From a virus (taxonomy: Duplodnaviria > Heunggongvirae > Uroviricota > Caudoviricetes), in the IMG/VR virus record IMGVR_UViG_2541047879_000004, positions 1 through 52,210 of that record: a DNA stretch of 52,210 nucleotides. The stretch is one strand, 5' to 3'. The translations under genes and the position numbers were made by a program. Shown here piece by piece: positions 40,546 through 52,210 of this stretch. How positions within the stretch are numbered: position 1 is the stretch's first letter; each line of letters opens with the position of its first letter. A model generated the notes under the pieces. It searched no databases. It worked only from the letters and a program-made list of their open reading frames with translations, and was not told where the DNA came from.

Positions 40546-43500
40546 ATGGGAAAAGGTGGCGGTAAGGCACACACGCCTCGTGAGGCGAAGGATAATCTCA
40601 AATCCACGCAGATGATGAGTGTGATTGATGCGATTGGTGAGGGACCGATAGAAGGTCCGGTGAAGGGACTGCAGAGTATTCTGGTGAACAAAACCCCACT
40701 GACGGACACGGACGGCAATCCCGTGATACACGGTGTGACGGCGGTCTGGCGCGCCGGGGAGCAGGAGCAGACACCACCGGAAGGCTTTGAGTCCTCCGGA
40801 GCTGAAACCGGACTGGGCGTGGAAGTGACGAAGGCAAAACCGGTGACGCGCACCATTACGTCCGCGAACATTGACCGCCTGCGGGTTACCTTCGGGGTGC
40901 AGTCACTGGTGCAGACCACGTCAAAGGGCGACCGTAATCCTTCCTCTGTCCGGATTCTGATTCAGTTACAGCGTAATGGTCGCTGGGTGACGGAAAAGGA
41001 CGTCACCATTAACGGCAAGACCACCTCACAGTTCCTGGCCTCGGTGATTCTGGATAATCTGCCGCCCCGGCCCTTTAACATCCGGATGGTCAGGGAGACG
41101 GCGGACAGCACCACGGACCAGCTGCAGAATAAGACGCTGTGGTCGTCATACACCGAAATCATCGATGTGAAACAGTGCTACCCGAACACGGCCATTGTGG
41201 GGCTGCAGGTGGATGCGGAGCAGTTCGGCGGCCAGCAGATGACGGTGAACTACCATATCCGCGGTCGCATCATCCAGGTGCCGTCAAACTATGACCCGGA
41301 AAAACGCACGTACAGTGGTATCTGGGACGGCAGTCTGAAACCGGCATACAGCAACAACCCGGCCTGGTGCCTGTGGGACATGCTGACTCACCCGCGCTAC
41401 GGCATGGGAAAACGTCTGGGGGCGGCGGATGTGGACAAGTGGGCGCTGTATGCCATCGGGCAGTACTGCGATCAGACGGTCCCGGATGGTTTCGGGGGGA
41501 CCGAGCCGCGGATGACCTTTAATGCGTACCTGGCACAACAGCGTAAGGCGTGGGACGTTCTCAGTGATTTCTGCTCTGCGATGCGCTGTATGCCGGTATG
41601 GAACGGTCAGACGCTGACGTTCGTTCAGGACCGCCCGTCGGATGTGGTGTGGCCGTACACCAACAGCGATGTGGTGGTGGATGATAACGGCGTGGGATTC
41701 CGCTACAGCTTCAGTGCCCTGAAGGACCGGCACACGGCGATGGAGGTGAATTACACCGACCCGCAGAACGGCTGGCAGACCTCCACGGAACTGGTGGAAG
41801 ACCCGGAAGCCATACTGCGCTACGGACGCAACCTGCTGAAGATGGATGCGTTCGGCTGTACCAGCCGCGGTCAGGCCCACCGTGCCGGACTGTGGGTGAT
41901 AAAGACCGAACTGCTGGAAACGCAGACGGTGGATTTCACGCTCGGGTCTCAGGGGCTGCGGCACACACCCGGTGACATCATTGAAATCTGTGATAACGAC
42001 TATGCCGGGACCCTGACCGGCGGACGTGTCCTGTCCATTGATGCTGCCACCCGCACCCTGACGCTGGACCGTGAAGTGACACTTCCGGAGACCGGTGCCG
42101 CCACGGTGAACCTGATTAACGGCAGCGGTAAGCCAGTGAGTGTGGACATCACCGAACACCCCGCGCCGGACCGGATACAGGTCAGTACCCTGCCTGATGG
42201 TGTGGAGACATACGGGGTGTGGGGACTCTCCCTGCCGTCACTGCGCCGTCGCCTGTTCCGCTGTGTCTCCGTCCGGGAAAACACGGACGGCACCTTTGCC
42301 ATCACGGCGGTGCAGCACGTACCGGAAAAAGAAGCCATCGTGGATAACGGTGCCCGCTTTGAGCCGCAGTCAGGTTCCCTGAACAGCGTCATCCCACCGG
42401 CAGTGCAGCACCTGACGGTGGAGGTGAGCGCAGCTGACGGCCAGTATCTGGCGCAGGCGAAATGGGACACGCCGCGGGTGGTGAAGGGTGTGCGCTTCAG
42501 TCTGCGCCTGACCAGTGGTAAGGGAACGGATGCCAGACTGGTGACCACCGCTATCACCGCAGACACGGAGCACCGTTTCAGCGGCCTGCCGCTCGGGGAA
42601 TACACCCTGACGGTGCGGGCGATAAACAGCTATGGCCAGCAGGGTGAACCTGCCACCACCACCTTCCGGATTGCCGCACCGGCAGCACCGTCGCGGATTG
42701 AGCTGACGCCGGGCTATTTTCAGATAACCGCCACGCCGCATCTTGCCGTTTATGACCCGACGGTACAGTTTGAGTTCTGGTTCTCGGAAAAGCGGATTGC
42801 GGATATCAGGCAGGTTGAAACCGCAGCCCGCTATCTTGGCTCGGCGCTGTACTGGATAGCTGCCAGTATCAATATCAAACCGGGCCATGATTATTATTTT
42901 TATATCCGCAGTGTGAATACTGTTGGCAAATCGGCATTCGTGGAGGCTGTCGGTCGGGCGAGCGATGATGCGGAAGGTTACCTGGATTTTTTCAAAGGAG
43001 AAATCGGGAAAACACATCTGGCCCAGGAGCTGTGGACGCAGATTGATAACGGTCAGCTTGCGCCGGACCTGGCTGAAATCAGGACGTCCATTACGAATGT
43101 CAGCAATGAAATCACGCAGACCGTCAATAAAAAACTGGAAAATCAGAGTGCGGCAATCCAGCAGATACAGAAAGTTCAGGTTGATACAAATAATAACCTG
43201 AACAGCATGTGGGCCGTGAAACTGCAGCAGATGCAGGACGGACGCCTTTATATTGCGGGTATCGGTGCCGGTATTGAGAATACGCCAGCAGGAATGCAGA
43301 GTCAGGTGCTGCTGGCGGCAGACAGGATTGCGATGATTAATCCTGCGAATGGCAACACAAAGCCGATGTTTGTTGGTCAGGGCGATCAGATATTTATGAA
43401 TGAAGTGTTCCTGAAATATCTGACGGCTCCCACCATTACCAGCGGCGGTAATCCTCCGGCATTTTCCCTGACACCGGACGGGCGGCTGACGGCGAAAAAT

Positions 43501-43638
43501 GCCGATATCAGCGGTAACGTGAATGCGAACTCCGGGACGCTCAACAACGTCACGATTAACGAGAACTGTCGGTTTACGAGAACTCGGCACAAGCGGGGAG
43601 AAAATACCGTTACTCAGTACAGCGAATACCTGGACTAA
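40546..43638 (+). CDS. J: Tail tip / host specificity protein J body (C-terminal receptor-binding domain apparently detached)
   Basis: 1030-aa lambda gpJ-like ORF; last ~22 residues non-J and stop lies inside a gix-like sequence. Confidence 0.85.
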
Positions 43639-43644
43639 TCGACA
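43619..43644. other. Degenerate gix-like recombination site (left boundary of invertible tail-fibre segment)
   Basis: ACAGCGAATACC TG GACTAATCGACA; outer half matches the strong site at 46638-46663 in inverted orientation, inner half diverged. Confidence 0.4.
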
Positions 43645-44515
43645 AACATTCAGCGGTGGCCTTTCTGGTGAACTATCCGGCAATGCTTCTACAGCTGCAA
43701 AATTAAAAACTGCCAGGAAAATAAGCAATGTGGCTTTTGATGGTTCCTCCGATATCACATTAAAAGCAAGTCATGTTGGTGCGTTTGCCTTAGGGAAAAC
43801 AGGAAGCACCGTTGCGAATGATAAAGCAGTTGGATGGAACTGGAGTAGCGGAGCCTATAACGCAACTATTAGTGGTGCATCAACGTTAATTATTCATTTT
43901 TATATGGGAGAAGGAAGTTGTCCTGCAGCTCAGTTTCGGATTAATTATAAAAATGGCGGTATTTTTTATCGTTCAGCCCGTGATGGTTATGGTTTTGAAG
44001 CCGACTGGTCCGAATTTTACACCACCACCAGAAAGCCTTCAGCAGGAGATGTTGGTGCACTGCCGTTATCTGGTGGTCAACTGAATGGTGCACTGGGTAT
44101 CGGAACATCCAGTGCTCTTGGCGGTAATTCGATTGTATTGGGTGATAATGACACGGGCTTTAAACAAAATGGCGATGGTAATCTGGATGTTTATGCTAAT
44201 AACGTCCATGTTATGCGCTTTGTCTCCGGAAGCATTCAAAGTAATAAAACCATAAATATTACAGGGCGTGTTACCCCCTCGGATTACGGTAACTTTGATT
44301 CCCGTTATGTGAAAGATGTTCGACTTGGTTCACAGCAATATTATGGAGTGAACAACTGGCAAACATGGAATTTCCAGTGCCCTTCAGGTCATGTATTGTC
44401 TGGTATTAATGTTCAGGATACAGGGTCTAACTCTGCCGATAATATAGCGGGCGTTTATTACAGACCCGTTCAAAAGTATATAAATGGCACCTGGTATAAT
44501 GTAGCGAGCGTTTAA
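43645..44515 (+). CDS. Silent alternative tail-fibre C-terminal cassette (S'v-like), no start codon of its own
   Basis: Homologous to C-terminal part of stf (LGGNSI(V/T)LGDNDTG(F/I)KQ(N/G)GDG, ...[11 protein letters not shown]); frame differs from J. Confidence 0.6.
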
Positions 44516-44516
44516 T

Positions 44517-45050
44517 ATGATGCACTTAAAGAACATAAAAGCGGGTAATGCTAAAACACTGGAACAGTATGAGTTAACAAAGAAACACGGAGTTATCTGG
44601 CTTTACTCTGAGGACGGAAAAAACTGGTATGAGGAAGTGAAAAACTTTCAGCCAGACACCATAAAGATTGTTTACGATGAAAATAATATTATTGTTGCCA
44701 TAACCAAAGATGCCTCCACACTTAACCCTGAAGGTTATAGCGTCGTTGAGATTCCTGATATTACCGCCAACCGGCGTGCTGACGACTCAGGTAAATGGAT
44801 GTTTAAAGATGGCGCAGTCATTAAACGTGTATATACCGAAGAAGAGTTGCGCCTACAGACGGAAAACCAGAAAAAAATATTATTACAGCAGGTCAGAGAA
44901 AAAACGCAGTTCTGGCAAACACAGCTTACTTTGGGGATTATCACTGATTCAGACAGACAGCAACTGATGAACTGGATGCGATACGTGCAACAGGTTGAGA
45001 CAACTGATACCTCGGTTCTTCCTGTAACATTCCCGGAACCACCAGAATAA
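44517..45050 (+). CDS. Tail fibre assembly protein (Tfa', alternative cassette)
   Basis: 177 aa paralog of 45081..45608 (MxHLKNIxAG...GVIWLY(S/T)EDGKNWY). Confidence 0.8.
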
Positions 45051-45054
45051 GAAA

Positions 45055-45078
45055 AGGCCCGTACGGGCCTTAATTTGT
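45055..45078. terminator. Bidirectional hairpin between convergent tfa genes
   Basis: AGGCCCGtacGGGCCT flanked by A/T runs. Confidence 0.55.
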
Positions 45079-45080
45079 TG

Positions 45081-45608
45081 TTATTCTGGTTTCTGTGGCC
45101 ATTCAGGCTTTGCAGTATCCACACGGCTGACCATAACGCTGTAGCGTTCCCATGATTCCAGTCGTGTGCGTTCCTCATCAGTTGCCATATTAAGTCTGAC
45201 AGCACGTTCCAGCGGTTGAATCACAGACTCCGCTTCGGAAAGCAAAGCGGCTTTTTGTAACTCTGCCTGCTGTTGCAGTTCCTGTTTTGTATATTCCCGC
45301 TTTACTACTTTACCATCCAGAAACTTCCAGTTTCCCGAGATATCGGCGCGACGGTTGGCTGTTATATTCGGTAACTCAACAACACTTAACCCGTCAGGGT
45401 TAAGTGTTGATACGTCTTTCTCAATACAACGAATAATCCCCTTCTGGTCATAAGCTATTTTTAAAGTATCATCCTGAAAGTTTTTTAATTCGTCATACCA
45501 GTTTTTACCGTCTTCTGTATATAGCCAGATAACGCCAGCTTTTTTCGTAAGCTGATACTGCTCAATGGTTTTGGGCTTTCCGGCGGTAATATTTTTCAGA
45601 TGTTGCAT
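45081..45608 (-). CDS. tfa: Tail fibre assembly protein Tfa
   Basis: 175 aa immediately downstream of stf on minus strand. Confidence 0.8.
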
Positions 45609-45623
45609 ATATTCTCCTGATGG

Positions 45624-48530
45624 CTATGCCTGTTCAACGTTATACCAGTTACCAGAAATGTATTTTTGTAGTGGTCGTGACACCATCCAGTCATCTCCAT
45701 CAACCTCACCAATAATTTGCAATCCTGTTGTCACATGACCATTACCTGGTTCGCAAAGTCCTCCGCGATATAATGCGTCAGAACGTCTGCCTCCCAGACG
45801 CACATTTCTGATAAAAGAACTATTCAGGTAATCATTTAAGTTTGAACCCCAGCACCCACCAAATATATTTCCATCGGTGTTATAACGGACGCCACCCGCA
45901 ATAAGAGCACCCGGTGAAATAAAGGATTTATCGTTCGGGTTAAACTGCCATAAAGCATCATTACCGCCATCGCCACGCATATGAATACATGGAACCGGAA
46001 ATCCATACTGTTCTGTCAGTAAATACCCAAAGCTGACCGCGCCGGGATAGCCCTGTCCATTGCGAATGGACAAGCCCTTAACTATCGGCACGTAATGACC
46101 ACCAGGAGTGGGATTCCAGGCAAACTGCGTCTGAACAAAAGGCGCGGTGGCATTATTCAACTGGTCTGCAAATGCGCCACTTCCATCAGGAATTATTCCC
46201 TGATGAATATATGCAACCCGCTTATAAAAATCAGCAGATGCGGGTTGAAGCCCAAATGCCAGTTGTCCATTTGAATAGAATAAAAGGACACCGTCGCCGC
46301 CCTGTTTAATACCAGTGTCGTTATCTCCGAGAGTAATGGAATTACCGCCCAGTGCGTTATCTGTACCAAGCGCCAGCCCACCATCAATTTTGGCCCCGTG
46401 GCTGACAGATATAGCACCTGTTCTCAGATTTATAGCGAATGGCCTTAATGGGCCGATATCACCGTTTTCGCCTTGTCCTTCAGCCGTCGGAATGAAATGA
46501 AGAAAATCTTCTGAACGACGGAAAATAAGACCGAAGGCATCATTGAAAATTCGCAGCGCATTCACCGTGCCAATTTTCAGTTCTCCGGTCATTTTATCGC
46601 CGGAACGCTGAACGGCGTTACCAGCCTTGTTTACCGTTTCCTGTAAACCGAGGTATTCGATAACGGCGGCAACGGTCGATTTCGCAAGAATATCCCGCCC
46701 AACTTTTGTCAGGGTTGCCAGACTGGCAACATCATTCCCCGTAAAATACGGAAACCTGTCTGCCGCAGTAGCAAGCCCGGCCAGCGCCGTCAGGGTGGCA
46801 TCTTTCGGTTGCTTACCCGCAAGCGCGCTAGTCATGGTGGTCGCAAAATTCGGGTCGTTGCCCAACGCCGCAGCCAGCTCGTTCAGCGTATTCAGTGCGT
46901 CAGGCGACGAGTCCACGAGGGCAGCGATCGCAGCCATAACATAAGCCGTGCTTGCGATTTGGGTATTATTCGTTCCCTGTCGCGCAGTTGGTGTTGTTGG
47001 CGTTCCGGTCAGTGCAGGACTATTTAAGGGCGCTTTCTTGTTCGTTTCACCCATTACCGCCTTAACCGCTTTTGGCGTTGCCGCCAGTGACTCGGAAGTG
47101 CTGTTGGTCGCACTGCTGAGCTGTACTATCCCCTTTTTCGTCGTGCTCGCATCCTCAAGCGCCACGGCGGATGCAATATCCTCTGCCCGTTTTGCCGCTG
47201 TCTCAGCGCGCGTTGCCGCGGATTCCGCCGTACTTTTGCTCTGAGCTGCCGCCGTCGCACTGCCAGCTGCCTCTGTCGCCTTCGTGGATGCCGTCGTGGC
47301 GCTGCCCTTTGCTGCTGACGCCTGTCTGGTCGCCTCATCTTTTGAAGCAGACGCAGATGATGCCGATGACGCCGCTGAACTGGCTGACGATGCGGCTGCC
47401 GCCTTAGAGGAAGCAGCATTGTCTGCTGAAGTCTTTGCATTTGTTTCAGAGGTTTTTGCTGCAGAAGCAGACCTCGCTGCTGCAGTGGCTTGCTCAGTGG
47501 CTTTGCCAGCCTTCGTTGTGGCTGTTGAAGCGGATGATGCGGCGCTTTCTGCCGATTTTCCGGCGGCGGTGGCACTGGCTGAGGCCTGCCCGGCACTTGT
47601 TGACGCGGCACTGGCAGATAATGCAGCCGCTGTTTTTGAACCTGCCGCAGCTGAGGCGCTCTGTCCCGCTGCTGTTTCAGAAGACTTAGCGTTCGTCTCG
47701 GACGTTTTTGCCGCCTTCGCGGAATTTCCTGCCGCCGTTGCCGAGGAAGCTGCACTACTGGCACTTGATGATGCATTCGTTTCTGAAGATTTCGCTGCCT
47801 CTTTTGAGGCCGCCGCACCCCGTGCCGAGGTGGCAGCTTCTGACGCCTTCGTGGTCGCTGTGGATGCAGAAGTGGCTGCTGATTGTTGTGACGCTGCCGC
47901 ATTCGTTTCTGACGTTTTCGCGGCACTGGCGCTGGTAGCTGCCGCGCTTTTTGATGACTCTGCAGCAGCAGCACTTTTTGATGCCTCAGAGGCTTTTGCT
48001 GATGCCGTTCCTGCGCTGGAAAAAGCCTCCTGAGCCGACGTCGCGGCCTGTCCGGCTGACGTGCTGGCTGCGCGTGCTGAGCCTGCAGCATCAGTCGCAT
48101 GGGTTGCCGCCTCACGGGCTGATGTGCTGGCATCGCCGGCTGACTTCTTCGCGGCTGCCGTGTTCTGTGCCACTGCGGACGCGTTACGCGCCACCTCTTC
48201 CACCATCAGTTCAAAACGGCGCAGTGCCTCCGGACGGGCATCATCCTCCGTCATGGCACCGAGAAAATCATTCAGCGTACCTGGTCTGGAACCTTCATAG
48301 ACGGTAATGGTCCCGGCATGTGAAGGCGGAAAACCTTCAACCAGCAGGGTGACGCTGTACTGACCATGCTCAACATCCATGCTGTAACGTCCGGCTTCAT
48401 CCGGATTTTCAGAGGCCACCGTGTTCACCACCACCGTGCTGCTGGTTCGTCTGGCCTTCAGCACAATGGTGCAGTTCTGTACTGGTTTTCCTGTGCCATC
48501 TTTAAGCACGCCAGAAATTTTTACTGTCAT
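45624..48530 (-). CDS. stf: Side tail fibre protein Stf
   Basis: 968 aa; N-terminus MTVKISGVLKDGTGKPVQNCTI like lambda Stf (recalled); long Ala/Ser/Thr-rich shaft repeats. Confidence 0.85.
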   Translation of the reverse strand: MTVKISGVLKDGTGKPVQNCTIVLKARRTSSTVVVNTVASENPDEAGRYSMDVEHGQYSVTLLVEGFPPSHAGTITVYEGSRPGTLNDFLGAMTEDDARPEALRRFELMVEEVARNASAVAQNTAAAKKSAGDASTSAREAATHATDAAGSARAASTSAGQAATSAQEAFSSAGTASAKASEASKSAAAAESSKSAAATSASAAKTSETNAAASQQSAATSASTATTKASEAATSARGAAASKEAAKSSETNASSSASSAASSATAAGNSAKAAKTSETNAKSSETAAGQSASAAAGSKTAAALSASAASTSAGQASASATAAGKSAESAASSASTATTKAGKATEQATAAARSASAAKTSETNAKTSADNAASSKAAAASSASSAASSASSASASKDEATRQASAAKGSATTASTKATEAAGSATAAAQSKSTAESAATRAETAAKRAEDIASAVALEDASTTKKGIVQLSSATNSTSESLAATPKAVKAVMGETNKKAPLNSPALTGTPTTPTARQGTNNTQIASTAYVMAAIAALVDSSPDALNTLNELAAALGNDPNFATTMTSALAGKQPKDATLTALAGLATAADRFPYFTGNDVASLATLTKVGRDILAKSTVAAVIEYLGLQETVNKAGNAVQRSGDKMTGELKIGTVNALRIFNDAFGLIFRRSEDFLHFIPTAEGQGENGDIGPLRPFAINLRTGAISVSHGAKIDGGLALGTDNALGGNSITLGDNDTGIKQGGDGVLLFYSNGQLAFGLQPASADFYKRVAYIHQGIIPDGSGAFADQLNNATAPFVQTQFAWNPTPGGHYVPIVKGLSIRNGQGYPGAVSFGYLLTEQYGFPVPCIHMRGDGGNDALWQFNPNDKSFISPGALIAGGVRYNTDGNIFGGCWGSNLNDYLNSSFIRNVRLGGRRSDALYRGGLCEPGNGHVTTGLQIIGEVDGDDWMVSRPLQKYISGNWYNVEQA
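46638..46663. other. gix/cix/pix-like DNA invertase crossover site inside stf (constant/variable junction)
   Basis: TTCCTGTAAACCGAGGTATTCGATAA, about 23 of 26 match to Mu gixL-type sequence as recalled; encodes AAVIEYLGLQE in stf frame. Confidence 0.65.
47120..48185. repeat. Ala/Ser/Thr-rich low-complexity repeat region of Stf shaft
   Basis: Protein segment of repeated (A/S/T)xSAxxA units; GC-rich DNA generating mirror ORFs in other frames. Confidence 0.7.
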
Positions 48531-48681
48531 ACTTTTCCACCAATAAAAAAAGCCCGCAGCAGTGACGCCACGGGGTTCAGGACAGTGTAACTTTACGTTT
48601 CCTCAAACGCAGTTCACCCCATAAGGTGGATGAACCTGCGTATCATAACAATATTTACAGAAGATAAATCGGCGTCTGTTG

Positions 48682-49281
48682 TCAGAAACGGTATCCGATA
48701 CCAACAATAAATGCATCCGTTCGCCAGTCGCCACTACCGGAACCTTCATAAGCAAGGTCAATGGTCACGGATTCGGTCGGGTTAAACTGCACGCCAGCCC
48801 CCCACGCCAGAGACGTGTTGCTGTGGCGACCGTCATCACTTCCGGTCAGCACATCGTGCGTTTTCCCCTTGTTGTCAGTTACGCGGAGATAATCCCCGGA
48901 GAAAGTCGACACACGGCTGTAAGCCACACCCGCCATCGCATACGCGCTGAACCATTCATTCACGCGTACAGACGGCCCCGCCATCACGCTGAACCAGCGG
49001 TTACGCACGGAATCTTCATGCCAGCGGGTATCGCTGTAGCGCGTTTTTTGCTCATCCTCAGCATTGGCATAACTGAAGGACGTAATCAGCCCCAGCGCGT
49101 CCGTAAACTCATAACGGTATTTCACGTTAATCCCGTTCAGATCATCACTACCGGGAACGTTCGTCGAGGCATGGAGATACCCCGCGCTCAGCGTGGACTG
49201 ATGTTCTGCTGCACTCGCTGGCGTAGCAGCGGCGACCTGCCAGACTACTGCGGACAAAATAACAGCACATAATTTACGCAT
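48682..49281 (-). CDS. lom: Outer membrane beta-barrel protein Lom (Ail/PagC/OmpX family)
   Basis: Signal peptide MRKLCAVILSAVVWQVAAATPASA; C-terminal ...GIGYRF beta-barrel terminus. Confidence 0.85.
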   Translation of the reverse strand: MRKLCAVILSAVVWQVAAATPASAAEHQSTLSAGYLHASTNVPGSDDLNGINVKYRYEFTDALGLITSFSYANAEDEQKTRYSDTRWHEDSVRNRWFSVMAGPSVRVNEWFSAYAMAGVAYSRVSTFSGDYLRVTDNKGKTHDVLTGSDDGRHSNTSLAWGAGVQFNPTESVTIDLAYEGSGSGDWRTDAFIVGIGYRF

Positions 49282-49299
49282 AATTACCTCTCGCTTTTC

Positions 49300-49330
49300 T
49301 GCAATAAAAAAGGCGCCATTTCTGGCGCCC
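49300..49330 (-). terminator. Rho-independent terminator (minus strand) between J-fragment ORF and lom
   Basis: GGCGCCagaaatGGCGCC followed by T-run on minus strand. Confidence 0.6.
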
Positions 49331-49348
49331 GTATCTGGGTTATAAAAT

Positions 49349-49831
49349 TCAGCTAATCGTGATGCCTGCAGTGGCTTTCTTCATCACCACAACCAGCAAA
49401 TCGCTGATACTTGCTGTGGGATACCAGTTATTTACCAGCCATGCTGACACCGAAAACTCCAGTGTCATGTGACCGTGACCGGCAGGCATATCAATAACAC
49501 CACTGTAAATCAGCGTATTATCCAGCGCGGTACGGTTATAAATTTCAGCACCGTTTTTCCGCACTATCAGACGGCATGAGGAGTAAATATCAGTATGCTC
49601 TTTCTCATGTTTAGCGCCGCTGAATGCCACCGCCGGAATAACAATCTGCCGGTCAAACGGCTGATCGTCATAAACCCTGACGGTAATGGTTCCTGATGGC
49701 CACCGCTCCGGTGCACGGGAGTCCCGGGGGAAAGCTTTGCCCACTGTTTTAACGAGATCGCCTTCAATCTGGTTCGCGGACAATTTTCCCAGAACCCGAG
49801 GTTTTAGATAATGGCGGTTTCTGGCCTGCAT
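49349..49831 (-). pseudogene. Inverted, detached fragment resembling C-terminal receptor-binding domain of J
   Basis: [21 protein letters not shown]...[15 protein letters not shown]...[10 protein letters not shown] resembles recalled lambda J C-terminus; lies upstream of lom on minus strand as in lambda J-lom order. Confidence 0.55.
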
Positions 49832-49865
49832 GGCATGATTTGTGCTTTTGGACGGGAGATTCAGC

Positions 49866-50105
49866 GTGCTGATTGGCTATGTAAGGGTATCAACAAATGA
49901 CCAGAATACAGATCTGCAACGAAACGCTCTTGTTTGTGCAGGATATGAACAAATATTTGAAGATAAATTAAGCGGAACAAGGACAGGCCGACCTGGATTA
50001 AAACGTGCTTTAAAGCGCCTTCAAAAAGGTGACGCACTGGTTGTCTGAAAACTGGACTGACTGGTTCACTGTATGCGGCATCTTGTCGTGCTGGTGGTGG
50101 AAGCC
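49866..50105 (+). pseudogene. pin: DNA invertase (Pin/Gin/Hin serine recombinase) N-terminal remnant with nonsense mutations, 3' part deleted
   Basis: [62 protein letters not shown] then TGA; downstream frame degenerate with second stop. Confidence 0.75.
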
Positions 50106-50107
50106 TA

Positions 50108-50240
50108 GAAAAAGTATCGGGTGTTACTGAACCGTGTTGATACATCAACTGCACCTGATATTGAGTGGCCTACGAACCCTGTCAGGGAGTAATCATTGGG
50201 ATTATGCCGCAGCACGTCTTAAGCAAGAACGTGCTGCGGT
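50108..50240. repeat. Direct repeat copy A: tfa 3' end (..[26 protein letters not shown]) plus hairpin
   Basis: About 130 bp nearly identical to 51166-51298. Confidence 0.8.
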
Positions 50241-50246
50241 TGGATG

Positions 50247-50915
50247 CTATTTTTTCCCTGAAGCGGAAAACATTACTACAGTACCTTGAACCTTGGTTTT
50301 AACATTCTCGAAATGCTCTGAGAGTATATGTGTTAAGCCTTCTTCGGAATCTTTTGTGTTTGAAAAGATGCCTTTCTGATTGTAAATGCGCATCAGTTTT
50401 TGACCGAAGCTATTGTGCACAACTCCATCGCCAAGAATTGTGGCTCCGTATAGAGTTCCATCGTCAGTTAAGGCCTGCGCCGCATTGCGTATTACACAGC
50501 TTTTTGTAGATATATTTCCAGGCAGGCAGTGAAGAAGGTAAAACATGGAAATGGAATCAAATTGACCATGTAACGCCGCGGGATAAGGTTCAAAAACATC
50601 ATGGCTAATTTTATGTTTAATTTTTGATTCCCCAGCCCTTGTAGATGCCGCGTTCAGGCTAGCTTCGTTCAAATCCATTAAAGATATCAGACTACTCTCA
50701 GGTACGTGAGTAAGGTAAAACCCAGTTCCAACACCAATATCCAGATGGTTGTTACCTACATGTTCCAGAAAGTGTGGAAGAAGGTGTTCCTTTGTAGGAC
50801 ATCCCCATGCAAGCCGATTTGATACTCCCAAAACCCACCAGTCATAAAGCTTTAGGGTAAGTGGTGTGTAAATTTTAGCCCCATCATCTGTGTTTTTTTT
50901 CATTGATTTCACCAT
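50247..50915 (-). CDS. Class I SAM-dependent methyltransferase (non-DNA type), cargo gene
   Basis: Motif I LDIGVGTG, acidic post-I LMDLN, motif II-like FDSISMFYLLHCLP; AT-rich. Confidence 0.6.
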   Translation of the reverse strand: MVKSMKKNTDDGAKIYTPLTLKLYDWWVLGVSNRLAWGCPTKEHLLPHFLEHVGNNHLDIGVGTGFYLTHVPESSLISLMDLNEASLNAASTRAGESKIKHKISHDVFEPYPAALHGQFDSISMFYLLHCLPGNISTKSCVIRNAAQALTDDGTLYGATILGDGVVHNSFGQKLMRIYNQKGIFSNTKDSEEGLTHILSEHFENVKTKVQGTVVMFSASGKK

Positions 50916-50971
50916 GTTATAGTTTTATTTGTGAATTAAATCAATTATGGCGATGAATTACAAGGGGTTAA

Positions 50972-51241
50972 ATGCTGCCGCAGCATAGCGATATTGAAAT
51001 AGCCTGGTATGCTTCGATACAGCAGGAGCCGAATGGCTGGAAGACCGTCACCACACAGTTCTACATCCAGGAATTCAGTGAGTATATTGCGCCACTGCAG
51101 GATGCTGTAGATCTGGAAATCGCAACGGAGGAAGAAAGATCGTTGCTGGAGGCATGGAATAAATATCGGGTATTGTTGAATCGTGTTGATACATCAACTG
51201 CACCTGATATTGAGTGGCCTGCAAATCCTGTCAGGGAGTAA
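50972..51241 (+). pseudogene. Tail fibre assembly protein C-terminal fragment
   Basis: ...[37 protein letters not shown]; only C-terminal part present. Confidence 0.6.
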
Positions 51242-51298
51242 TCATTGGGATTATGCCGCAGACACGTCGTATGCAGGAACGTGCTGCGGTTAGTTTGT
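51166..51298. repeat. Direct repeat copy B of tfa 3' end plus hairpin
   Basis: Near-identical to 50108-50240. Confidence 0.8.
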
Positions 51299-51355
51299 GA
51301 GCTTTCGATAGTGGTTGTTATTTTTGCCCTTATTTGTTCCGGAGGCCATGGTTCA

Positions 51356-51526
51356 ATGGTCCGTCTGCCCCCTGTGGTGATGTCAGCAAAATCAGCCACT
51401 GCGCGAACCACAATAGCCCGGGAAGATGCTGAAGATCACCAGGTAAAGCTGTCAGCGCAGAAACTGGAAGAACTGCTCGCATCAATGGTTAAGGATGAGG
51501 TTGATCGCAATGATGGGATTTATTGA
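51356..51526 (+). CDS. Small hypothetical protein (56 aa)
   Basis: ggagg upstream; weak. Confidence 0.3.
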   Translation: MVRLPPVVMSAKSATARTTIAREDAEDHQVKLSAQKLEELLASMVKDEVDRNDGIY

Positions 51527-51619
51527 CGTCAGCGAGAGCAGAAGGAAGAACTGAATAACCTGAATGATTTACGCTCAATCAGAGCGATGGCGATTAGCGG
51601 CAATCACGCTCGATAAAAT

Positions 51620-51646
51620 TAACCCCGGTGATCATCCGGGGTTTTG
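51620..51646. terminator. Bidirectional rho-independent terminator between convergent genes
   Basis: CCCCGGtgatcatCCGGGG then TTTT. Confidence 0.7.
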
Positions 51647-51652
51647 CATTCA

Positions 51653-52210
51653 TTAAAACCGCATCAACCTTTCCACCAATTGTTCTTTACGGGCAACGAT
51701 CCACCCATGTTGCTCCAGATAAAATTTAAACCGTTCCAGCGTGCATACCATCGCATCGGCGGGGACTTTTTCTGTGAACTCGACCTGACCGTGTTTATCG
51801 AAGTGGATCAGTAATGCGCATCCATTATTTGGGGCGGGGGAGTTTTGTGCTGCAGGAGGACGTTTGTGGAGTTCTTCTTCCATTGCGTTAAATTTTTCAA
51901 TGTAAGCTTCTTTTAGTCTGGCTGCTTTTTTGCCAGTAAATCCCATTACGAGGAACATGAAGCCGTCTTTTGTGATCAGGTAGCATCGTGATTCACGTTC
52001 TGCGCCGTTGCCAATTTCGACAGTCTGAACATCGGCCGAAAAGTTGGCTGATGTAAATTCGGGAGAGCAGTCGAGTGTGTCAATCTTAGCTAAAACGTGT
52101 TTATGTTGTTTATCGAAGTAGTCGGCAACAGCTTGAGAGGTGGTAACCAGGCGACCATCTTTGAAAAAGACTTTTGGTGACTCGTTAGAAAAAGTTATAG
52201 CTGTATTCAT
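51653..52210 (-). CDS. Rha-family phage regulatory protein
   Basis: N-terminal ...GRLVTTSQAVADYFDKQHKHVLAKIDTL... and ...YLITKDGFMFLVMGFTGKKAARLKEAYIEKFNAMEEEL pattern of Rha family (recalled); start codon at window edge. Confidence 0.65.
   Translation of the reverse strand: MNTAITFSNESPKVFFKDGRLVTTSQAVADYFDKQHKHVLAKIDTLDCSPEFTSANFSADVQTVEIGNGAERESRCYLITKDGFMFLVMGFTGKKAARLKEAYIEKFNAMEEELHKRPPAAQNSPAPNNGCALLIHFDKHGQVEFTEKVPADAMVCTLERFKFYLEQHGWIVARKEQLVERLMRF

Follow-up and report, generated by a model that had tools for sequence, protein, structure and literature searches.

The window analysed here is the whole 52,210-nucleotide stretch of a tailed-phage genome (IMGVR_UViG_2541047879_000004, Caudoviricetes). 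At its right-hand end, it carries the remnant of a serine DNA invertase gene (pin'), two truncated tail-fibre-assembly (tfa) genes and, between their repeated 3' ends, an intact gene for a methyltransferase dependent on S-adenosylmethionine (SAM). We read this region, with a probability of about 0.8 for the explanation as a whole, as the outermost part, now decayed, of the tail-fibre module in a lambdoid prophage that has its integration site at ompW/trp in Escherichia coli of the sequence type 131 (ST131) kind, built up in three layers. Positions 49800–51650 are 100% identical to many ST131 chromosomes, and on the identical sequence the NCBI Prokaryotic Genome Annotation Pipeline (PGAP) calls a recombinase and two tfa genes, all three incomplete, as well as a class I SAM-dependent methyltransferase (WP_000240999.1) and a DUF4376 pseudogene. 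As judged from such annotations, the layout is already known, both from standard pipelines and from E. coli K-12, where it is annotated as tfaD-ybcY-tfaX.

In the first layer, an invertible tail-fibre segment of the Mu-G/e14 type would have recombined into the stf-tfa genes, and its invertase gene would have been cut at about codon 76 and joined non-homologously to the last ~33 codons of a resident tfaD-type gene. The second layer, downstream, is a widespread module, probably a moron, that equals the tfaD-ybcY-tfaX of K-12 and is formed by a tfa stop codon with its hairpin, a convergent AT-rich methyltransferase gene with a candidate sigma-70 promoter of its own, and a truncated second tfa. 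In the third layer, the two flanks of the module, both of them tfa 3' ends, form direct repeats of ~150–230 nucleotides (nt), and homologous recombination within them would join the module to different prophage backbones, or delete it so that one hybrid tfa end is left. In evolutionary terms, this is lambdoid mosaicism of the ordinary, textbook kind, and as a genome feature the region matters little. Its value is that of a clean sequence-level case of conserved tfa 3' ends that act as linkers in recombination, by which a passenger gene is moved or deleted; two crossover points, independent of each other, can be seen. The features of the region are as follows.

49866–50094, plus strand: pin', 5' remnant (~76 codons) of a serine DNA invertase gene, assigned by Pfam Resolvase, PHROG and DNA identity to intact pin
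50095–50192, plus strand: coding part of repeat copy A, a tfaD-type 3' end (~33 codons) with stop codon TAA at 50190–50192, 97% identical to K-12 tfaD, with a TGG>TAG change at 50106
50206–50240, strand not assigned: hairpin A, 15 predicted pairs (12 + 3, one bulged base), -28.6 kcal/mol, z -4.35 against shuffled sequences
50247–50915, minus strand: intact orthologue of ybcY, predicted class I SAM-dependent methyltransferase, assigned by Pfam, PHROG 2132, AlphaFold and identity to K-12 ybcY
50916–50971, minus strand: putative promoter region for the methyltransferase gene, AT-rich with 27% GC, assigned by its hexamers and a report on K-12
50972–51241, plus strand: tfaX', an 89-residue open reading frame (ORF) that corresponds to the C-terminal part only of a tail-fibre-assembly protein (Caudo_TAP positions 75–130 of 131, 6e-25)
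51144–51291, plus strand: repeat copy B, a tfa 3' end with hairpin B, 88.5% identical to copy A, running on into the resident prophage backbone
51255–51290, within copy B: hairpin B, z -2.41 against shuffled sequences
51338–51616, plus strand: remnant (pseudogene) of a DUF4376-type tail-fibre gene of the resident prophage, called by PGAP on the identical sequence of ST131 strain JJ1887, with PHROG tail-fibre matches to the ORF 51245–51526

Direct repeats and tfa remnants

Self-alignment, which an earlier note made from the letters of the window had proposed as a check, confirms the direct repeats. Copy A (50095–50241, 147 nt) and copy B (51144–51291) are identical at 131 of 148 alignment columns (88.5%), with one 1-nt indel, and no further copy was found in the window. 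The earlier note had described direct repeats of 130 bp. Each segment is a near-perfect copy of a tfa end, but the two are only ~89% alike, and their bounds are those given here rather than 50108–50240 and 51166–51298.

In each copy, the ~33 terminal codons of a tfa gene are followed by the stop codon and a stable hairpin. Hairpin A lies 3' of the tfa stop codon, between the convergent tfa remnant and the methyltransferase gene. The homology of copy B to K-12 tfaD extends over 227 nt, and the surrounding positions 51065–51604 are 95% identical to the tfa-hairpin-DUF4376' stretch of the prophage in strain EFF60, which lacks the methyltransferase cassette. Going by these alignments, the repeats are not insertion scars; they come from two tfa paralogues that have diverged but share a conserved 3' end.

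The tfa C-terminal fragment that had been noticed between the copies is the ORF 50972–51241, as its match to the C-terminal part of Caudo_TAP attests. Homology to the module of other elements begins at 50942, and the tfaX' region is 97–99% identical to K-12 tfaX and to phages 2G7b and Turner up to 51196–51218. Neither tfaX' nor copy A encodes a full-length Caudo_TAP chaperone (~175–195 residues), the full-length relatives having 187–194 residues. The tfaX' ORF also matches PHROG 2341, a family of unknown function, from end to end (4e-61), and an ORF of 306 nt is annotated over the same stretch in phage Turner. Rather than being mere debris, the fragment may encode a small protein that is maintained.

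A module shared with K-12, other E. coli and phages

Positions 50095–51218 align to tfaD-ybcY-tfaX of the DLP12 prophage of MG1655 (b0561–b0563) with 97% identity over 1124 nt, and both its sequence and its conserved flanks identify the methyltransferase gene as the orthologue of ybcY. Genome counts were taken over 5426 complete E. coli genomes. The gene was found over at least 80% of its length and at 98–100% identity in 3799 of them (~70%), in up to four places per genome. Full-length copies are also present in 14 phage records, among them 2G7b, ev243 and Turner; in the genomes of 2G7b and Turner, the gene is located immediately past the tail-fibre genes.

The edges of the module vary from element to element. 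On the left, a longer tfa is found in K-12, in S88 and in a minimal argU remnant, tfa being complete in K-12 and S88; in 2G7b, tfa is truncated at another point, ~33 nt further upstream, and in Turner and O157:H7 homology starts only at the hairpin (50201–50207). On the right, homology ends at 51196 in 2G7b, Turner and O157, at 51218 in K-12 and at 50998 where the module directly precedes ompT, and it continues into DUF4376' in S88 and ST131. From its distribution, tfaD3'-hairpin-ybcY-tfaX' is evidently an old and widespread module that was not assembled at the present locus. With this spread, ybcY is among the most widespread E. coli prophage genes without a functional study, intact in most strains and dead in K-12; its inactivity in K-12 may be a reason for the neglect of the gene.

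The invertase remnant and its junction with tfa

The reading frame that starts at GTG 49866 matches the N-terminal part of Pfam Resolvase (2.9e-15) and the DNA invertase family of PHROG (5e-33). At the DNA level, the stretch from the adjacent crossover site to position 50056 is 93% identical to an intact pin gene (199 residues; P2-like prophage of O145:H28 strain RM12581), and beyond 50056 the likeness to intact pin is detectable at the protein level only. The frame is interrupted by TGA at codon 61 (50046–50048) and again by TGA at codon 65 (50058–50060), which agrees with the earlier description of a pin-like frame that runs for about 60 codons to a TGA and then meets a second stop. A TAG at 50106–50108 follows; it sits in the tfa-derived part and is the TGG>TAG change listed above. 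The remnant retains the N-terminal YVRVSTNDQ and has lost the DNA-binding domain as well as the remainder of the catalytic domain. A full-length serine invertase has ~190–200 residues with a catalytic and a C-terminal DNA-binding domain; with ~76 codons and two stops in frame, pin' is by its sequence a dead pseudogene.

From 50095 on, the sequence is no longer pin and is 97% identical to the 3' end of K-12 tfaD. Together with the Pfam and PHROG matches, this identity supports the proposed fusion of an invertase pseudogene to a tfa 3' end. The join itself is real, but it falls at ~50090–50097 and not at 50108 as first placed. An apparent reach of pin similarity into the tfa part in tblastn (to residue 99) was rejected as a chance resemblance (..DTS..P), the stretch being 97% identical to tfaD. 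The two genes meet in a few shared bases (GGAA), which points to non-homologous joining, and the junction was presumably a separate event, either a non-homologous deletion or a joining. The same junction is present in an e14-like element of strain K71-77, which has TGG where the window has TGA 50046 and TAG 50106.

When the window is compared with the EFF60 prophage, the J-lom-stf N-terminal stretch (47062–49799) is 96% identical and the tfa-3'-DUF4376' stretch (51065–51604) is 95% identical, while the sequences in between are different. In the history that we propose, an S88-like prophage would have received the invertible tail-fibre module by a left-hand crossover in stf, and on the right side the two would have been united by the non-homologous join between pin and tfa.

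Alleles with and without the methyltransferase gene

At the ompW site, S88 carries stf-tfa(full length)-hairpin-ybcY-tfaX'-DUF4376'-ompW', 99.4% identical to 50095–51604. EFF60 and strain 10 have stf-tfa-hairpin-DUF4376'-ompW' at the same site, with the cassette absent. The comparison of related prophages that the earlier note had suggested thus gives a definite result: the relatives at the ompW site differ by exactly the unit between the repeats, and the crossovers lie inside the repeats. Copies A and B can be told apart at 30 sites. The single tfa end of EFF60 is of A type through alignment column 83 and of B type from column 119, and that of strain 10 switches between columns 38 and 78. From this pattern, the tfa ends of EFF60 and strain 10 evidently arose by recombination between the two repeats, at crossover points that are independent of each other.

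The cassette-free junction was found in 20 genomes, the tfa-ybcY junction in 2608 and the pin'-tfa' junction in 763 (pin'-tfa'-ybcY in ~760–820). Since cassette-free alleles are rare and have two different switch points, loss by recombination between the repeats fits better than capture. The direction of change is, on these frequencies and switch points, more likely to have been mostly loss of the cassette. A loss of another kind is seen in the K71-77 element, where a 659-bp deletion outside the repeats (equivalent to 50283–50941) took the methyltransferase gene and its promoter. That locus had been considered as an empty site and was rejected, as 36 nt of the 3' end of the methyltransferase gene are still there.

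The converse history is that the cassette was captured at the present locus through the tfa 3' ends, so that the cassette-free allele would be ancestral and the S88 and ST131 alleles would stem from a double crossover with a donor phage. It would account for the right-hand joint to the resident backbone, which lies inside tfa homology (51065–51218), and the hybrid ends of EFF60 and strain 10 are equally compatible with crossovers during acquisition. We nevertheless consider it unlikely. Cassette-free alleles occur in 20 of 5426 genomes against thousands with the cassette, the two switch points would require cassette-free sequences that were already mosaic, and the module occurs with both tfa flanks in many unrelated contexts, so that it was not assembled here. 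The cargo capture by recombination between tfa 3' ends that the earlier note had proposed thus stands as regards recombination within the repeats. It does not stand as regards capture: the repeats were not made together with the gene, nor by capturing it here, the module is old and widespread, and cassette-free alleles are rare.

The methyltransferase gene and its product

The gene between the repeats has a GC content of 41.1%, against 51.3% for the window, and lies on the minus strand, in line with its first description as an AT-rich minus-strand gene; the spacer upstream has 27% GC. The 222-residue ORF exceeds the cut-offs of four Pfam families, namely Methyltransf_12 (score 37.5, cut-off 30), Methyltransf_23 (29, cut-off 27), Methyltransf_25 (27.7, cut-off 27) and Methyltransf_11 (24.6, cut-off 21.2). 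Its residues 5–222 match profile positions 1–218 of PHROG 2132, a family of unknown function. All homologues aligned, as well as PHROG 2132, begin at the residue equivalent to M5. The promoter hexamers abut the first ATG and the ATG at 50903 is preceded by GGTGA, which makes ATG 50903 the likely start; the predicted protein has 218 residues.

An alignment of 25 homologues (56–90% identity) contains 62 invariant columns. These include DIGVGTG, D81, HD(V/I)F, a FDSxSxxYLLHCL block and an N-terminal motif, YDWWV..N..AW.C. In the SAM-binding signature, D59, G61, G63, T64 and G65 (the glycine-rich motif I) and D81 (the acidic residue that follows strand 2) are all invariant in the 25 homologues, their roles being presumed from the family. 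The N-terminal motif has no match to a characterised family in the Pfam, NCBIfam and profile searches that were run. AlphaFold predicts a single-domain, seven-stranded Rossmann fold with a predicted local distance difference test (pLDDT) value of 89.7 and a predicted template-modelling score (pTM) of 0.86. The earlier note had named the product a 222-residue class I SAM-dependent methyltransferase and had proposed Pfam and fold prediction as checks; the four Pfam matches and the predicted Rossmann fold agree with the name. We are confident, from the sequence motifs and the model, that the product has the Rossmann fold of a class I SAM-dependent methyltransferase.

A large protein search returned 2296 homologues in Enterobacterales, Aeromonas, Shewanella and Pasteurellaceae, all with generic names only. 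Those with 56–68% identity are stand-alone chromosomal genes in Salmonella and Enterobacter, whose neighbourhoods are unrelated and give no pathway hint. In fold comparisons, the best Foldseek matches (E 5e-12) were a bacterial phosphatidylethanolamine N-methyltransferase (8ys9), juvenile-hormone-acid methyltransferase, SgvM and phosphoethanolamine methyltransferases, and a fold search of BFVD returned generic methyltransferases only. Sequence profiles rank juvenile-hormone-acid methyltransferase (7.6e-6) and UbiG first, with natural-product methyltransferases also among the top PDB relatives. NCBIfam contains no curated family for the protein, the matches to CpaM, RquA (16.9 against a cut-off of 175 bits) and PmtA (15.7 against 390 bits) being far below threshold. 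A literature search on ybcY found no functional study; the gene is mentioned in lists, neighbourhood descriptions and a promoter catalogue. By analogy with the relatives named above, we lean slightly towards an enzyme that acts not on DNA, RNA or protein but on a metabolite or lipid that is small and probably hydrophobic, the substrate class being weakly indicated. We conclude that the family of the enzyme is uncharacterised and was probably acquired by phages as a moron.

A further and rather speculative possibility is that YbcY is an unrecognised lysogenic-conversion enzyme, silenced by H-NS, which when expressed would methylate either a lipid or quinone of the host membrane or a small-molecule toxin of exogenous origin. 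This reading is left standing because the family is intact and strongly conserved, has its nearest likeness to lipid and hydrophobic-acid methyltransferases and has no assigned substrate. If it were true, a prophage gene carried by ~70% of E. coli could change the envelope of the lysogen, its susceptibility to phages or its resistance to toxins.

A role as a phage DNA (or RNA) methyltransferase in anti-restriction or epigenetic control is very unlikely. The protein has no (D/N/S)PP(Y/F/W) or PCQ motif, and the 218-residue single-domain model is devoid of a target-recognition domain. Its best relatives in both sequence and fold are small-molecule and lipid methyltransferases, and its close homologues are lone chromosomal genes outside prophages. 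The sole match in a PADLOC search for defence systems was insignificant (12.9 bits).

Putative promoter and proposed transcription unit

On the minus strand upstream of the methyltransferase gene, the hexamers TTGATT and TATAAC are separated by 17 nt (50944 to 50916), and a consensus scan gives a second candidate promoter, TTAACC-16-CATAAT (50971 to 50944). The same promoter in the K-12 ybcY/tfaX spacer was catalogued by genomic SELEX (systematic evolution of ligands by exponential enrichment) as a constitutive RpoD promoter with an H-NS mark (PMC3946193). On the opposite side, a stable hairpin lies 3' of the methyltransferase stop codon; it has no T-tract and was not called as a terminator by the scan. 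The gene has the marks of a moron in both composition (41.1 versus 51.3% GC) and distribution, being carried by S88 and missing from EFF60 and strain 10. We infer from the sequence that it would be expressed from the lysogen as an independent unit.

Several observations weigh against this account of the region. Regarding expression as an independent unit, the K-12 copy of ybcY is a pseudogene, and the transcription unit is only half documented: hairpin A was not called an intrinsic terminator by the consensus scan, and neither hairpin is followed by a T-tract. Regarding loss of the cassette, independent acquisitions by double crossover would yield the same A/B hybrids as loss. The recombinant that recombination between the repeats of the present allele should produce (pin'-tfa-hairpin-DUF4376') was found in 0 of 5426 genomes.

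Other readings of the repeats

The repeated tfa 3' segments might instead be genes for the small RNA IS009 (Rfam RF02111), so that the repeats would be kept for an RNA function. The IS009 model does match the window at 50995–51198 (112.5 bits, E 2e-26) and at 50070–50149 (43.5 bits), and the repeat segments end in stable hairpins. However, both matches lie under the gathering score of 117, the model falls wholly inside the tfaD coding sequence in K-12 (227.8 bits), and the conservation of the segments follows the tfa reading frame. A ribosome-profiling study likewise put IS009 aside as lying within genes (PMC5331693). We therefore regard an RNA function as highly improbable. For practical purposes, the IS009 family equals the 3' portion that tfa genes conserve, and its Rfam model may describe coding sequence rather than a small RNA. 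Hairpin A also has a weak match to CssrB (32.6 bits against a cut-off of 76).

That the methyltransferase gene is a discrete mobile cassette inserted in tfa, with the repeats as target duplication or attachment sites, would suit a gene of differing base composition that is bracketed by direct repeats and has presence and absence alleles at one site, but is scarcely credible for repeats that are long (147 nt, and 227 nt for copy B with K-12 tfaD), only 88.5% identical and made up of the 3' ends, in frame, of two tfa genes that have diverged and have separate coding sequence upstream, in a module that has no linked transposase or integrase, whose edges vary between elements and whose switch points vary within the repeat, the mark of homologous and not of site-specific recombination.

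The invertible tail-fibre segment and neighbouring features

The invertase remnant is preceded by a crossover site.

49786–49811, plus strand: 26-bp pix/gix-like invertase crossover site, TTCCCAGAACCC GA GGTTTTAGATAA, unique in the window, with 0 expected by chance

Two other crossover sites are found in the window, at 46637–46662 (pixL) and 43559–43584; the 26-bp sites were compared with the consensus for sites of this type. When the four parental and recombinant sites are compared, the site at 49786–49811 proves to be a hybrid, with its left half from gene J and its right half from the pin-proximal site. The 6.2-kb stretch 43570–49800, with stf C1, two tfa genes, stf, lom and the C-terminal part of J, is inverted with respect to ST131 reference genomes. 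The exchange maps precisely to the central TC of two sites, namely the pix site next to pin (TTATCTAAAACC TC GGTTTACGAGAA) and a quasi-site within gene J (TAACGAGAACTG TC GGGTTCTGGGAA). Gene J is split as a result. Its N-terminal part (40546–43569) continues out of frame until it meets a stop at 43638, and the final 160 codons are found at 49349–49831 on the minus strand, which implies that the tail tip is disabled. None of the 5426 complete E. coli genomes has the J-pix inversion junction. From the sequence of the junction, the inversion looks like the work of an invertase supplied in trans at a secondary site, or else like an assembly error in the source.

The normal invertible segment spans 3.1 kb from pixL (46637–46662) to the pin-proximal site. 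It lies in opposite orientations in the ST131 strains JJ1887 and 4/1-1, and pin is a pseudogene in both. The opposite orientations in spite of a dead local pin indicate that the segment is still being flipped, or was until recently, presumably by an invertase from another element. Invertase action in trans on the tail-fibre segment is thus plausible.

In the window, lom (48682–49281) is intact; in the ST131 reference genomes examined, it is interrupted by ISEc12, of the IS21 family. Beyond DUF4376', in 51604–52210, the prophage of the ST131 type has rha and ash and then a fragment of ompW, 50 bp from trpA. The order in S88 and EFF60 is ompW'-yciE-yciF-yciG-trpA, with no rha or ash. Judging from these maps, ST131 appears to be devoid of yciEFG at the ompW/trpA site.

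Comparison with known systems

The closest counterpart of the region is the DLP12 prophage of K-12, which has the same order and orientation of a tfa 3' end, a hairpin, a convergent methyltransferase gene and a truncated tfa, together with the same promoter hexamers. The methyltransferase gene alone is 99% identical to K-12 ybcY. It is intact in the window, whereas the K-12 copy is a pseudogene in which the ATG equivalent to 50903 reads ATA, and the alignment spans 667 nt against 669 nt. The flanks differ as well. K-12 tfaD is full length, whereas the upstream tfa of the window is reduced to ~33 codons by the fusion to pin', and K-12 tfaX diverges after the equivalent of 51218, whereas the downstream tfa end of the window continues into the backbone at the ompW site.

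With PmtA (8ys9), juvenile-hormone-acid methyltransferase (7ebs/7ec0) and UbiG (4kdr), the predicted enzyme shares a single-domain Rossmann fold, a similar size and an N-terminal helical cap. At identities of 13–21% and template-modelling (TM) scores of 0.55–0.66, these lipid and small-molecule methyltransferases differ from it enough that no shared substrate can be claimed. For PmtA in particular, the likeness is one of fold only (8ys9, TM-score 0.62–0.66), and its score lies below the NCBIfam equivalog cut-off.

Invertible tail-fibre segments with a serine invertase are known from the G segment of Mu with gin, the C segment of P1 with cin and the P segment of e14 with pin. Like these, the segment in the window has a 26-bp crossover site beside the invertase gene, with flips seen in ST131 genomes, and alternative stf C-termini, each with its own tfa, in inverted order (43570–46662). 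Unlike them, its local invertase is a pseudogene, so that inversion must rely on the invertase of another element, and the module is set in a lambdoid J-lom-stf context.

The methyltransferase unit resembles phage morons, the 'more on' genes of lambdoid phages (PMC3594210), in being a gene of foreign composition between phage genes that is present in some and absent from others among similar phages, with a candidate promoter of its own and expression expected from the prophage. It differs from them in its downstream hairpin, which is not a canonical terminator, and in its flanks, which are paralogous gene ends that would themselves drive the gain and loss of the gene.

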